Below, piece after piece: positions 17,058-21,982 of a DNA stretch of 64,000 nucleotides; position 1 is the stretch's first letter; each line of letters opens with the position of its first letter. The stretch lies in NCBI GenBank assembly GCA_965214835.1, contig CBDCCK010000002.1, positions 2,560,001 to 2,624,000 on the forward strand, written 5' to 3'. This DNA is from Nitrosopumilaceae archaeon (GTDB taxonomy: Archaea > Thermoproteota > Nitrososphaeria > Nitrososphaerales > Nitrosopumilaceae). Below the pieces are notes generated by a model. It made no database searches. It saw nothing but the letters and a program-made list of their open reading frames with translations, and was not told the origin of the DNA. The position numbers and the translations under genes were made by a program.

Positions 17058-17840
17058 CTATTCAATCACATTGGGTATTTCTTCTCTAATCTCAGACAAC
17101 ATTTTTGGAATGTTGATTGACTCGTTGATCAAACGTGTTAAACTGCGTAAATGTTCCTTCAAAACTTCTTCAATATCTTCAGGAAAGAATTGTCCGATGC
17201 CAGTAAATTTGACATTTTTTGTTTCACATTTTTTCAAAAAAAGATCTCCGACACCGTTCCAGATTTTGTTTTCTTTGAGCAATCGCCAGACATCATAGTA
17301 ATCCCTAATCTTTCTACGCTGGAGGATTGCTCTCAATTTTTCTGCCAGTATTGTTTCAAGTGAGTAAACGCTTACCGAGAATTTTGGATAGTCATAATAC
17401 TGTGGTACCGGCATTGCTACAATTTTGCCAATCTCCTCTTCGCGACTAATTTCAATTTTTAATCTAGCCGTGCTAATGGGCCCCGTATACTTGAACCTGC
17501 TTTGAAAATATCCCGGGTTTGTGTATGGTGATCCTTCAAGTTTTAACGCAATTTGGTTTTTTTGCATCACAATATTTGGTATTTCTTTTTCAATCGGCTT
17601 GACAAACTTTTCCCATGCTGTATTGCCTATGGGTGTGAAATCAAGATCTTCTGACAGCCTCCACTGGTTAGGAAAGTAGATCTTTGACAGGGCCGTACCT
17701 CCCTTGAAAACAAGCTTGTTAGAAATTGAACTGTTTGCAATGCCATAGAGCATCCATCCGAGAACATAGTCTTTTTCCACCGTGTCGACTCCGACTTTTA
17801 GCTCCACGGCCTTCTTCCTAAGTTCTTGATGTGAGATCAT
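17058..17840 (-). CDS. abiEii: AbiEii nucleotidyltransferase toxin (second system)
   Basis: VEKDYVL, FKGGTAL, RLSEDLDF, EKLRA..R..RDYYD. Confidence 0.92.
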   Translation of the reverse strand: MISHQELRKKAVELKVGVDTVEKDYVLGWMLYGIANSSISNKLVFKGGTALSKIYFPNQWRLSEDLDFTPIGNTAWEKFVKPIEKEIPNIVMQKNQIALKLEGSPYTNPGYFQSRFKYTGPISTARLKIEISREEEIGKIVAMPVPQYYDYPKFSVSVYSLETILAEKLRAILQRRKIRDYYDVWRLLKENKIWNGVGDLFLKKCETKNVKFTGIGQFFPEDIEEVLKEHLRSLTRLINESINIPKMLSEIREEIPNVIE

Positions 17841-18649
17841 TATTGCGTCCACCTGTCTGGATCAATTGTTGCATTGACAATCAGAGACCATTTTGTCTTT
17901 ATTTTGCCCCTTTTTGGAGAGAGTGGATCAAGCATGGAATATCCCTTTTTAACTTCTGCATTTTCCAAAACATTGAGACACTTATCAAGTCCCAGTACTT
18001 CGGAGATGTATCCAAGCCTTTTGACTACCGCGCCATTTCCAATCTTTACTGCCATCTTGGACAACGTTTCAAGCTTCAGCTCACTGGCAGAAAAATAAAG
18101 TGCCCTTGCAACCTCGTCAATGCCTCCCGCATGTTCCGGATGATCTAGGCAGTCTACGAATGTTTTTGCAGGCGTTGAGATGTTGACAGGCATGTTCTCA
18201 ACTGTGGTGATTGCGGCAACGCCAAACATTTTACGTGGAATTATTGTAACAAACTTGAATTCAACATTCAGTATTTTTCTAGAATTTCTTGGTTTTGGTG
18301 TGGCAATGTACACACAGGGCGGTGTCTGCTCTGTGAATCCGTAATGGTTGAGGGCGCTCCAATATCCGATGTAATATGGTTTTGCCAGCAGTGATCCTAT
18401 TACAAAGCTGTGAATGGTGTAACTGTCAGCTCCTTCCTCGCCTGCCTCAAATGGAGCTATAGCATAAACCCCCTTTCTTACTTTTAGAATCCATTTTTTT
18501 CTGACCAGCCAGTCTAGGACATTTTTTGGATTGCTTACTAGGTTCTTGACATCATCTAGCGTGAATATTGTCTTGTTTTTGTGACTGAGTCTTGCCAGAA
18601 CTCCCGCCTCCCTTTCCGACAATGTATGTCTGTATTTTTTTATGGGCAT
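17840..18649 (-). CDS. abiEi: AbiEi antitoxin (second system)
   Basis: LVRKKWI..VRKGVY, YIGYWSALNHYG, KTFVDCLDHP; TAATG coupling to the toxin. Confidence 0.9.
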   Translation of the reverse strand: MPIKKYRHTLSEREAGVLARLSHKNKTIFTLDDVKNLVSNPKNVLDWLVRKKWILKVRKGVYAIAPFEAGEEGADSYTIHSFVIGSLLAKPYYIGYWSALNHYGFTEQTPPCVYIATPKPRNSRKILNVEFKFVTIIPRKMFGVAAITTVENMPVNISTPAKTFVDCLDHPEHAGGIDEVARALYFSASELKLETLSKMAVKIGNGAVVKRLGYISEVLGLDKCLNVLENAEVKKGYSMLDPLSPKRGKIKTKWSLIVNATIDPDRWTQ

Positions 18650-18785
18650 TCGAACCATAACTCGAAAATCATTAAGAAAATATAGGTTTTTGGTGCTTAA
18701 AAGTATGACGGAAACCGGCTTGTTGCATAACCCCGATTTTAGGCACGAAAAACTGGCTGTTTTTACGCGTTCAGGCACGGTTATG

Positions 18786-20234
18786 CATCCATGGTAAAAC
18801 GCCCGCCAGTAACATGGCGACGTTCCTTTCGTCTTCTGATCCGTGCCTAGTCGGCCGGGCCGTGCTTTATAGCTAACGCTAGCAATACGCACGAGCCAGT
18901 CCTGTCGCACCTGCCGAGGTGCGGGCGGATCATTGGGTGGGTGGGTGGGGGATGGAAGGTGGCAATCCTATGCCGTTCCCACCAGTTCTGTCACCCTCTT
19001 GATCTTCCTGTCGTACAGGGCAGCATTGCGCGATGAATACACAGTCTTTGTCGTCAGCATGTGCCAGATTATCCTGAGCATCTTGTTTGCAACATGCGTT
19101 ATCGCTATGACGTGGTTGTTGCCGTTCCTTTTGCGGACCCTCTCGTAGAACTCCCTCATCCTGTCGTCGTGCTGTACGGCGACGTTGGCTATCTGGATCA
19201 TCAGCCAGTTGATCCTGCGGTTTGCATCCTTTTTCATGTGGCCGTGGTACTCGCGATCCCCCGACTGGTACACCCGGGGACACATGCCGGCCCAGGACAC
19301 AAGCTGGTTCGGCGATGGAAACCTGGTTATGTCACCGATCTCTGCTATCAGCAGCATTGCTGCAAAGGTGTCTATTCCCGTCATGCTCAACAGCAGCTTG
19401 GCATCCTCGTTCGATCCTGCCTGTCTTCCTATGTCCTCCCCTGCTTGGTCTATCTCCTCTGTGACGTGTACAATCCTCCTAGTGCAGCTTGCCAGTATCC
19501 TGTCATCGTTTGGCATGTTCAGCCTGGTATTGGAGATCTTCCGTATGGCCTTCTTGGAGTACATCGTGGATGCATCTATGGCTATGTCGTACTTGTCAAG
19601 CCAAGCTGTGCAGCCCGTTTATGACTGCGGTCCTCTCCTGCACCATCCGTATCCTGTACCTCATCAGCTCCCTGACATCCCTCAGCTCTGCTGATGCCAC
19701 GTAGCATCGTGGTATCATTCCGGCCCTGAGCGTTTCGGCTATCTTCCTTGCATCTATCGGGTCAGTCTTTACGCTGGTCTCTGATACTATCTTCATCTTG
19801 AGGGTGTTTGCAAGCAGTATGGGGATATGCTGATCCTCAAACGCCCTGAACGTCTTTAGCCACATGTTGCCCGTTGACTCGCACGCGGCCTGGCACTTTT
19901 TGTACTCTTTTTTCAGTCGTGCAGCAAGCTTTGATGCCTCCTTGTACGTGTTGTTATACGAGCCCTCCTCTAGCACGTGTCCCTTGGCGTCGATGACGCA
20001 CACTGCGCATTTTCTCTTTCCAATGTCTATTCCTATGCTTCTCAATCCTTTTCTTTCACCTCCTTTTGGATATGGTTTGACAGATCAGAAGCTGCATTCA
20101 TCCATCAGTGCGCGTAGCACAGGAACACAGCAGCTCGGATATCCCCATTCAACAGGTAGTGCGCGAAGCACATGCATAACGAGGGGTTGATCCATCACCC
20201 TGGCTACGGCGGGGGCGTTTTTATCATGTGTTCA
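18786..20234 (-). mobile_element. IS110-family element; recombinase at 18968-20045 with a single +1 frameshift near 19600
   Basis: GIDIGK, CESTG and KTDPIDA (DEDD), GMCPRVYQSG (catalytic Ser); CA core at both ends; subterminal IRs AAAACGCCC. Confidence 0.92.
20060..20215 (-). ncRNA. Putative IS110 bridge RNA (target-binding and donor-binding loops)
   Basis: Two stem/internal-loop/GTGC-N5-GCAC modules whose loop strands match the element's own target and donor junctions. Confidence 0.85.
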
Positions 20235-20251
20235 ACAGGCTAGGAAACCGT

Positions 20252-20629
20252 AGCTTGTTGCATAACTCCGACTAGAGCCCAGCCAATTCTTCCGGATCAC
20301 TACCGGCGCTCGGTTCCTACACGGCAGCCACCGCCTCTGCGATCCACTTGTTGTACAGCCATATCCTCAACTTTACCTCCTGCACTATATTGGACCACTT
20401 GAGGGCCTTTACGTCCTCGCCAAACATGCGCTTTATGGCCGATATCACGATCTCGACGATCCATCTGATGCCAAAGCCGACCGTGCTCTTCGGGTACCGC
20501 AGGTTCTCCTGCCTCTCCTCCTTTGATAGGCTGCCCACCGGCTCCTCGGGGCCGCCCCCGAGCTGCCATCGCACCAGCCGGCCCCACTTGTCGCCGCTGC
20601 CCAGGTGCATCTTGACAAATCCTCGCCTT
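20252..20629 (-). pseudogene. 3' fragment of an IS5-family transposase with its right TIR
   Basis: RWIVEIVISAIKRMFGE; TIR AGCTTGTTGCATAAC; truncated by IS3. Confidence 0.75.
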
Positions 20630-21890
20630 TGGTGCGGACCCCAAAAAAAAGAAGGAACGATCTGCAATGCACACTTTTTTAGTTCGGAGGTCGAATCACA
20701 GATATGACCAAGAAAACATGGAGTACGCAGGACAAGATAGGGATAGTCATGGAGCACTTAAACACCAACATCGAAACGGCAGATCTATGCCGCCGCCACA
20801 ACCTCTCCCCCAAGACGTTTTACCAGTGGAGGAAACGCTTTTTGCAGGGCGGACGCGCATCGCTGTCAGGCAGCGGCCCTGCAACGGCCGAAGGCAGACT
20901 CCAAAAGGAGAACGAGTCGCTCAAGCACATCATCGGCGAGTATGCCATAGCCAATGCGCTTTTAAAAAAAACCTTGGAGGCAGGCAAAAGGTGAACATTG
21001 CAATACTGCTAAGGGAGAGGGGCTGGAGCATGGACAAGACCCTGCAGTACAGCGGCGCCTCCAGAACTGCGTGGTACCACGTAAAAAAGCCGCAAAGACA
21101 GACAGAACCGGATCCGCAGACGGTCTCATTTGTCAGGGAGATCGGCAACAAGAGGCCCACATACGGCACGCGCCGCATGGCAGCCCAGATAAGTCGCGAG
21201 ACCGGCGTGCCGACAAACCGCAAAAGGATACAGCAGATATGCCGCAAAATAGGCTGGATCACGCCTAAAAAGACCAAAAACGACATAATAAGAGCAGGAA
21301 AAAGAGACAGGTTCAAGCCCACAGGGCCAAACCAGCTGTGGGAGACGGACATTACATACGTCTGGTGCGGTATAGACGGGTGGTGCTACTGCTTTAACGT
21401 AATCGATACGTTCACCAGGAAGTGGATAACATACGTCTTTGCCACGCAGGCCACCGCACAGGTCGCAGTCGAATCGCTGACAAGAGCAGTCTCCACGATT
21501 TCGGCAGACGAGGCAAGAGGACTGCTGGTCAGAAGTGACAATGGGACCCAGTACACGAGCCGCGAATTCAAGGAGAGTATGAAGATCCTGGGAGTCCGGT
21601 GTGAGTACATCTGGCACAACACACCCGAGCAGAACGGACATGTCGAGTCCTTCCACAAGACCCTCAAAAAGGAGTACGTCTGGCCACATGACTTTGCCAG
21701 GTTCCAGGATGCCGAGGCCGTCCTGGCAGAGGCGTTTGCAGATTACAACAAAGACAGGATCCACTCGGCACTGGGATACCTGACGCCGGACGAGTTTGTC
21801 CGGAAAATGCAGGAGGTGCCACAAAAATGAGCGATCAGAGCGTGCGTAAAATATCGCAAAAAGCGTTCCTATTTTATGGGGTCCACTCCA
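20630..21890 (+). mobile_element. IS3-family element, orfA 20704-20994 and orfB to 21830, with a -1 frameshift site
   Basis: TG...CA TIRs (TGGWGYGGACCCCA); slippery TTTAAAAAAAA; WETDITY, SDNGTQY and NGHVESF integrase core; solo right TIR also at 60761-60785. Confidence 0.93.
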
Positions 21891-21982
21891 GTATATCGGA
21901 CTATGGGATGCTGCCCCAACCCCCTCCACCGGTGCCTCCATGATCTGCTTCATGGAAGACGGCATAATGGGCATTTGCCGTA

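Follow-up and report, generated by a model that had tools for sequence, protein, structure and literature searches.

Probable RNA-guided insertion of an archaeal IS110-family element into the terminal inverted repeat of a miniature transposable element

The insertion sequences (ISs) IS4321 and IS5075, which belong to the IS1111 group, are said to target the 38-bp terminal inverted repeats (TIRs) of Tn21-family transposons, an observation ascribed to Partridge & Hall 2003. Nearly 900 IS4321 insertions yield the same target logo (PMC11187229), and the elements IS621 and ISEc11 use bridge or seek RNAs (PMC11208160, PMC11187229). The genome mining in PMC11187229 covered bacterial taxids only. Described here is an IS110-family element from an archaeal genome, located at 18788-20234 of a 64,000-nt stretch of DNA (the window, whose numbering is used below). 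This copy very probably entered the right TIR of a miniature inverted-repeat transposable element, or MITE, through RNA-guided, site-specific recombination. Since RNA-guided IS110 elements and TIR targeting by IS4321/IS5075 are both known already, the case is not categorically new.

The likeness to IS4321/IS5075 drawn here is one of description. In both cases the element occupies a fixed position and orientation inside the TIR of another transposon and has subterminal inverted repeats; the original prediction for this locus had named IS4321 as its precedent, in agreement with the title of Partridge & Hall 2003. The differences concern hosts, layout, and range: the hosts here are archaeal IS5-family ISs and a MITE, where those of IS4321/IS5075 are Tn3-family transposons of bacterial plasmids; the transposase gene is preceded, not followed, by the RNA gene; and sister elements in the same genome have been reprogrammed to the TIRs of two other IS or MITE families.

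The genome (G000) comprises 3.22 Mb in two contigs, C1 and C2. Its small-subunit ribosomal RNA scores 1452.6 bits against the archaeal Rfam model and 1089.2 against the bacterial model, and so is archaeal. The IS110 element is oriented right to left, on the minus strand, and interrupts the MITE as follows.

18710-18717, no strand: left direct repeat GGAAACCG, putative target-site duplication of the MITE; the same 8-mer stands at 20243-20250.
18718-18787, plus strand: left part of the MITE, 70 nt, comprising the left TIR, the body, and the right TIR's inner half.
18788-20232, minus strand: IS110-family body, 1445 bp, TCCATGG...TGTGTT; eight near-identical full copies have the same ends.
20233-20234, no strand: core copy 2, CA on the plus strand and TG in IS orientation; the core is single in empty sites.
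20235-20242, plus strand: outer 8 nt of the MITE right TIR, ACAGGCTA, split from the remaining MITE by the insertion.
20243-20250, no strand: right direct repeat GGAAACCG, an 8/8 match to the left copy.
20251-20660 (end approximate), plus strand: end of an IS5-family element, opening with TAGCTTGTTGCATAACTCC; its TIR, 20251-20266, is of the class IS5 end A.

The left part of the MITE opens with GCTTGTTGCATAACC and closes with GGTTATGCA, the final CA of which is core copy 1. At the left junction (18787/18788), GGTTATGCA is followed by TCCATGG; at the right junction, the body ends at 20232 and the sequence reads TGTGTT-CA-ACAGGCTA. Because the sequence of empty sites is GGTTATG-CA-ACAGGCTA, and CA flanks the body on both sides in occupied ones, the inserted DNA is 18788-20234: the 1445-bp body plus one copy of a shared 2-nt core. 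A TG/CA core that is single in empty sites and present at both junctions of occupied sites is the pattern of site-specific insertion without target duplication.

Removing the IS110 element restores an 80-bp MITE, much as the original prediction had it (about 80 bp). The restored element has 76 positions identical to an empty MITE elsewhere in the genome (C2:3110703-3110782; the version compared carried one extra A). Over its left 70 nt it is 100% identical to an empty MITE from a genome of the same genus (G002, contig C50), which runs on into ACAGGCTA and has an 8-bp duplication around it. The flanking repeats are likewise real, both as the 8/8 match of GGAAACCG and, in the register first proposed, as CGGAAACC/AGGAAACC (7/8 identical); the orthologous flank in G002 has GGAAACC in single copy. 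Contigs from public runs pass from 18787 straight into ACAGGCTA and then varied sequence, and so represent empty TIRs of paralogous copies. The search for an empty MITE, proposed at the outset, therefore succeeded in part: empty paralogues occur in G000 and G002, but the true empty allele of this locus was not found among four same-genus genomes, of which only G002 has the left flank. There (G002:C55:1-520, L064) the match to the left flank stops exactly at the start base of the MITE. A different repeated element lies about 70 nt beyond, and this may be a recurrent insertion point.

What would direct the element to this site is a predicted RNA. The left end (LE) of the element, 187 nt of non-coding sequence upstream of the transposase (20046-20232), holds an RNA fold. 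In element orientation the LE reads TG-AACACATGATAAAAACGCCCCCGCC, followed by two similar modules. Module 1 consists of CCCCU-CGUUAUGCA, the hairpin UGUGCUUCGCGCAC, and UACCUGUUGAAUGGGG; module 2 of GCUG-UGUGUUCC, the hairpin UGUGCUACGCGCAC, and UGAUGGAUGAAUGCAGC. The guide segments, together with the subterminal repeats at LE and at the right end (RE), are these.

20089-20193, minus strand: predicted structured core of the bridge RNA, with an outer stem, a target internal loop plus apical hairpin, and a donor internal loop plus apical hairpin.
20173-20181, minus strand: 5' target guide CGUUAUGCA, 8 nt of it reverse-complementary to the core and right target, TG-CATAAC.
20150-20156, minus strand: 3' target guide CCUGUUG, the same as CCTGT-TG, the left target with its core; pairs with the bottom strand.
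20123-20129, minus strand: 5' donor guide UGUGUUC, reverse complement of the core G plus the start of LE (G-AACACA).
20097-20105, minus strand: 3' donor guide AUGGAUGAA, the same as the RE end ATGGA plus core TG plus LE AA (the circle junction).
18790-18811, no strand: RE arm of the subterminal inverted repeat, beginning 3 nt from the terminus.
20205-20228, no strand: LE arm of the subterminal inverted repeat, beginning 5 nt from the terminus.

The segment of module 1 that is reverse-complementary to TG-CATAAC is GUUAUGCA. The two target segments match the TIR on opposite strands, overlapping at the core, and together specify CCTGT-TG-CATAAC, which is nt 4-16 of the TIR common to the IS5-family element and the MITE. 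Because this 13-nt site is part of both TIRs, those TIRs are the landing sites. Each donor match is located exactly 51 nt downstream of its target-loop counterpart. All four guide matches are in LE; RE has no target match of 7 nt or longer.

The fold is conserved. A consensus from 15 sequences of six genomes has five helices, and both apical hairpins show compensatory changes (UA to GC and GC to UA). Paired cells make up 95.3%, compared with 89.2% in shuffles and at most 60.2% when the partners are slid; the covariation score is 0.171 versus 0.076 for shuffled sequences, and was reached by none of 500 shuffles. In 14 of the 15 sequences the donor stem has a G.U pair at its base, which favours the sense strand, that is, the direction of the transposase.

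By analogy with IS621 and ISEc11, the RNA would be made from this strand and the excised element would form a circle. The donor loop would then read the joined ends (RE ...ATGGA-TG-AACAC... LE) and the target loop the TIR, and strand exchange at TG, by chemistry of the IS621/IS1111 type, would insert the element. Recombination at this core would leave the element 10 nt inside the TIR tip, in one orientation and with no target duplication.

Compared with the two described groups, the arrangement is a hybrid. As in IS621/ISEc21, a recombinase with DEDD and Tnp domains is preceded by an upstream RNA in which the target loop comes before the donor loop, the 2-nt core takes part in all four pairings, and no target duplication arises (PMC11208160). 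Guide order, however, is reversed in both loops relative to the rule in PMC11208160 and PMC11187229; the subterminal repeat is about 20 nt, compared with the 2-3 bp of the IS110 group; and the protein is distant (E 9e-9 to IS621 and 4e-9 to ISCro4, in the C-terminal domain). With the IS1111 group (ISEc11, ISPa11, ISKpn4) it shares the subterminal repeats and a top-strand match that lies 5' of the bottom-strand match (PMC11187229). The repeats escaped a gapless search; gapped local alignment of LE with reverse-complemented RE recovered them, with 20-21 matches in 25 columns and small gaps, and they answer to the subterminal inverted repeats of about 7-17 bp that mark this group. Yet the RNA of the IS1111 group lies in the right end, downstream of the transposase, rather than upstream; the terminal extensions here are 4 and 2 nt, theirs 7 and 3 bp; and the donor loop here is a simple internal loop mirroring the target loop. 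The predicted layout thus combines an upstream RNA, as in IS110, with guide order and subterminal repeats like those of IS1111.

Guides and sites vary together. Relatives in five further genomes (G002, G004, G010, G019, and G022) carry further guides, and flanks were compared with guides by permutation. The left-flank comparison used a single row for each distinct 3' guide, 22 rows from six genomes, after gaps or truncation had removed 5 of 44 rows. Guide and flank agree at 77 of 132 variable positions; the permuted mean is 46.1, and none of 20000 permutations reached 77. For the right flank, 21 junctions could be located. The signal there is weaker than on the left: 93 of 147 positions against 72.5 when all rows are used (reached by 10 of 20000), and 57 of 105 against 42.5 for the 15 unique guide/flank pairs (117 of 20000). 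Donor guides also co-vary with the ends, AACAC with GUGUU and AAGAC with GUCU; the RE ends ATGGA, ATAGA, and ATAGG each come with a matching guide. Predicted non-coding RNA segments that are complementary to both strands of the target and to the joined ends, and that co-vary with them, are what characterizes the IS110 family. The original prediction that the guide is programmed against the TIR of an IS5-type element or MITE is borne out by the two opposite-strand matches and by the left-flank covariation.

The copies in G000 tell the same story. BLAST of the IS110 body against the genome mapped 11 full-length copies along with many fragments. Eight full-length copies, 98-99% identical to the window copy, make up the window subfamily. 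All eight lie in TIRs of the form GTTATGCA (left) and ACAG(G/A/T)CTA (right), at four MITE ends, two IS5 A ends, and two IS5 B ends. The 13-mer fits perfectly at six of these sites; at the other two, the outermost left-guide position differs. Three truncated copies have an RE junction that can be read: two in the subfamily TIR, one elsewhere. Of the 23 LE junctions in the genome, 14 are at a TAGnnTGT tip, five at (C/T)AGTAGT, three at a G-run tip, and one at another sequence. This distribution agrees with the original prediction, which would have been undermined by a majority of copies outside TIRs. At least five further lineages of IS110-family transposases, 27-54% identical, are present in C1 and C2 (for example, C2:311789-312883, 1472973-1473953, 1650743-1651936, 2136206-2137249, and 2665995-2667081).

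Might the copies have reached these TIRs through one or a few early insertions, and then have been carried about by transposition or duplication of an IS5 or MITE composite? Three copies do share one MITE end, two pairs share the same IS5 end, and the closest pair, 2578788 and 2178171 (11 differences), has the same MITE context. Nevertheless, such carriage is very improbable. The copies occupy four different TIR contexts. Between copies 2128808 (IS5 end B) and 1098260 (IS5 end A) there are 11 differences, and between copies 1835892 (IS5 end B) and 2950263 (MITE) there are 12, where divergence within the subfamily is 0.8-2%. Closest copies thus often occupy different host contexts, which argues for repeated insertion and not for passive copying of one composite. 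Moreover, the transposase-less mini-elements described below and copies in G002 also occupy the IS5-type TIR; guide-flank covariation reaches unrelated sites in other genomes; and, from established knowledge of DDE transposases, a host with a split TIR is not expected to transpose.

As for the hosts, the TIR TAG(C/T/A)(C/T)TGTTGCATAAC flanks elements of 1.25-1.5 kb with 8-bp duplications, and three IS5-family copies have 16-nt TIRs together with 8-bp duplications. Assignment to IS5 comes from the 307-aa part of the open reading frame (ORF) in copy C2:2021355-2022610, which scores 159 bits with NF033579 (cut-off 140) and E 7e-20 with PF01609. The same TIR bounds many ORF-less copies of about 80 bp, including copies of 80-82 bp at eight listed places; 8-bp duplications surround the MITE at C2:3110703 and that at G002:C50. 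Elsewhere, then, both the MITE and the IS5-family element occur intact with this TIR, as the original prediction required. MITE and 1.25-1.5-kb IS have only the terminal 16 nt in common; a 1.3-kb element at C2:250417-251726, with a longer shared stretch at the MITE end, may be the closer or true parent of the MITE. In two IS5-family copies (C2:189785-191196 and 2913900-2915419) the ORF contains a tandem 18-aa unit, KSIKKEEEQDCPDIVDTI, repeated four and six times, respectively; copy 2021355-2022610 lacks this repeat.

The 13-mer CCTGTTGCATAAC is intact four times in the genome (0.09 expected), each time in a TIR, and occurs 26 times with one mismatch (3.5 expected). Both one-mismatch targets that had been noted in the window are found: one within the left TIR of the MITE (18719-18731) and the other in the TIR of the IS5-family remnant (20254). 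Insertion plausibly disables the host element, because the outer 8-10 nt of its TIR become separated from the rest by 1.4 kb. TIRs may also be regarded as "safe" landing sites, an evolutionary reading of the same pattern.

Other guides point to other TIRs. Three divergent full-length copies in G000 have the guides CAUUUUCA and GUAGUUG (in copy 1300856 a deletion has shortened the second), and their left flank is CAGTAGT-TG or TAGTAGT-TG. One of them, which holds the only intact transposase, has the right flank AAAATGC expected from its 5' guide; on the right, the fit of the other two is poor (3/7 and 2/7). The site of this sister subgroup, CAGTAGT-TG-AAAATGT, is the TIR of a multi-copy IS of 1368 bp, from which both flanks of the intact-transposase copy derive. 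The transposase of the 1368-bp IS is ISH3-like, below the family cut-off (107 bits versus 225). This IS is found at C2:1763087-1764454 (L061) and in about a dozen further copies, with the TIR CAGTAGTTGAAAATGTACCCC, the 5-bp duplication ATAAT, and a 415-aa transposase.

A third set of guides is carried by the mini-element at C2:2955826. These guides specify (G)AGGT-TG-TCGCGTA, and the element is located in GGGGGT-TG-CTGCGTAATTCGCC, a variant form of GGGGTTGTCGCCTAATTC, which is the TIR of a second MITE, about 125 bp long. The terminal 13-mer of this MITE has 143 matches with up to two mismatches, most of them preceded by the tip GGGGTTGT. The second MITE occupies about 100 sites in C2, such as 509237-509350 and 620014-620126. 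Taken together, the guides of the window subfamily, the sister subgroup, and the mini-element indicate one scaffold with at least three guide sets, each directed about 7-10 nt inside the TIR of another element. In other genomes the sites differ: copies in G010 lie in a small palindromic repeat, and those in G004 follow a conserved ...ACGTCG-TG, with varied right flanks. Targeting of TIRs is therefore shown only for G000 and G002.

Several observations weigh against RNA-guided insertion. For a single copy, complementarity to the 22-nt site is not significant: an 8-nt plus a 7-nt match arises somewhere in the IS in 296 of 2000 shuffles. The weight therefore rests on where in the RNA fold the matches fall, and on covariation. 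On the right flank, the covariation is weak with one row per guide and the modal flank (747 of 20000), and 2384 of 20000 permutations reach the observed value with the first row per guide, which happens to be a chimeric mini-element. Misfits occur on the right side (copy 1517779 and mini-elements 640151 and 3124378) and on the left (3124378 and L054). Rfam models applied to 17500-21500 at E <= 1 yielded only three chance matches, none to a bridge-RNA family; none of the public runs listed with this stretch is recorded as RNA; and the contigs of public runs X1, X3, X7, and X8 contain neither a joint across the IS nor a circle junction. Four perfect sites stand empty. Finally, 10 of the 11 full-length copies (the eight of the subfamily plus 1517779 and 1300856) have a frameshift between the two transposase domains.

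The chance level of the single-copy match, and an RNA known here from sequence only, would suit recognition of the site by a protein (the recombinase, or an IS5 transposase bound at the TIR), with the RNA matches being coincidental. Three features of the data make this most improbable: the matches fall at equivalent places in two paralogous loops, donor 51 nt downstream of target; the guides co-vary with sites unrelated to IS5; and the same scaffold, with other guides, is found in the TIR of the ISH3-like IS and in that of the second MITE.

Membership in the IS110 family follows from two domains, located on separate ORFs.

19596-20045, minus strand: ORF1, 149 aa, DEDD/RuvC-like N-terminal domain (PF01548 DEDD_Tnp_IS110, E 1.2e-28).
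18968-19564, minus strand: ORF2, 198 aa, transposase C-terminal domain (PF02371 Transposase_20, E 1.6e-26).
19602, minus strand: extra G that splits the transposase frame, the sole coding-region indel relative to the intact paralogue C2:513240-514648.

The transposase frame of the window copy is therefore interrupted. The intact paralogue (378 aa) scores 234 bits with NF033542, "IS110 family RNA-guided transposase" (cut-off 140), and has the same donor ends and RNA scaffold as the window subfamily. Relatives in G004, G010, and G022 have a single-frame transposase. At the split site, ...AGC TTG GCT TGA C..., there is to our knowledge no homopolymer run or recognised slippery motif, and programmed frameshifting is not claimed. 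With the frameshift present in all copies of the subfamily, reliance on a recombinase supplied in trans is possible; frameshifted copies may depend on it, and the intact paralogue is a candidate source. A search of genome contigs for related loci, with the intact transposase as query, gave 80 pattern matches, none of them confirmed.

Transposase-less derivatives make movement in trans plausible. These mini-elements, about 370 bp long and found in G000 and G002, consist of LE, with the complete two-loop bridge RNA, plus RE. Some have guide sequences of their own.

C2:2139578-2139948, 2955617-2955987, about 639990-640362, and about 3124156-3124521: mini-elements in G000.
L038, L044, and L049: mini-elements in G002.

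Two of them, 640151 and 3124378, have an IS5-type TIR tip on the left and a second-MITE flank on the right, and look chimeric. For ISEc11, a mini IS is mobile when transposase and RNA are supplied in trans (PMC11187229). MITEPpu9, associated with ISPpu9, is similarly a short transposase-less derivative with IS110-type ends, reported as probably moving by means of transposase supplied in trans (PMC12288879); it carries the Ssr9 small RNA, whereas the elements here keep a complete bridge RNA, in some cases with distinct guides.

These derivatives bear on whether the window subfamily now consists of dead relics, a frameshift having ended its mobility so that the pattern records past activity. That state of affairs, itself compatible with an RNA-guided origin, is unlikely, if by no means far-fetched. 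All eight copies, as well as 1517779 and 1300856, share the 1-nt insertion, and four perfect targets are still empty. Unless gene conversion intervened, however, a shared frameshift implies that it arose before the spread to at least four contexts and before the 0.8-2% divergence. In addition, an intact paralogue with the same donor ends and scaffold exists, the 370-bp derivatives have also spread, and the mini IS of ISEc11 moved in trans (PMC11187229).

A wider reading, more doubtful than not and offered tentatively, is that these elements represent a third IS110 architecture, specialised in one archaeal genus as a parasite of transposon ends. Its guides would have been rewritten at least three times (for the IS5-family IS and MITE, for the ISH3-like IS, and for the second abundant MITE), and the unit that spreads would be the guide RNA plus ends, not the recombinase gene. 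The latter suggestion stems from the most successful lineage being frameshifted and from the 370-bp derivatives retaining a complete bridge RNA, some of them with programming of their own; the mini-elements would then be non-autonomous guide carriers that select their targets themselves and borrow the enzyme. In the literature searched, which did not extend to the supplementary target tables of PMC11208160 and PMC11187229 (these may hold cases), there was no archaeal IS110 element aimed at IS or MITE TIRs; no MITE or other non-autonomous derivative with a bridge RNA; no hybrid layout; and no retargeting to three mobile-element families in one genome.

RNA-guided IS110 elements are under development as programmable recombinases, and natural retargeting shows which changes are tolerated. 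In G000 a single scaffold carries at least three natural sets of guides, each directed at the ends of other mobile elements. Should frameshifted copies and those lacking a transposase indeed be mobile under their own guides, the bridge RNA would be a separable module and a selfish one. Archaeal transposons may also restrain each other by inserting into TIRs.

To the right of the MITE, the IS5-family remnant is truncated or interrupted by an IS3-family element. The ORF at 20317-20757 (C-terminal) is similar to the transposases of intact IS5-family copies. The IS3-family element, inside the remnant at window 20660-21900, contains ORF 20704-20994 as well as ORF 20667-21830, in which rve, rve_3, and HTH_21 domains are recognised. 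Within 3.2 kb, four mobile elements thus nest in or abut one another.

On the left, the minus-strand ORF 17058-18650 has the AbiEi antitoxin domains PF09407 and PF13338; the ORF immediately downstream of it, 264 aa long, is a candidate AbiEii-type partner. The analysis thus accounts, for purposes of annotation, for a nest of four mobile elements beside an AbiE-type gene pair, the nest starting about 60 nt from the likely start of the AbiEi ORF.

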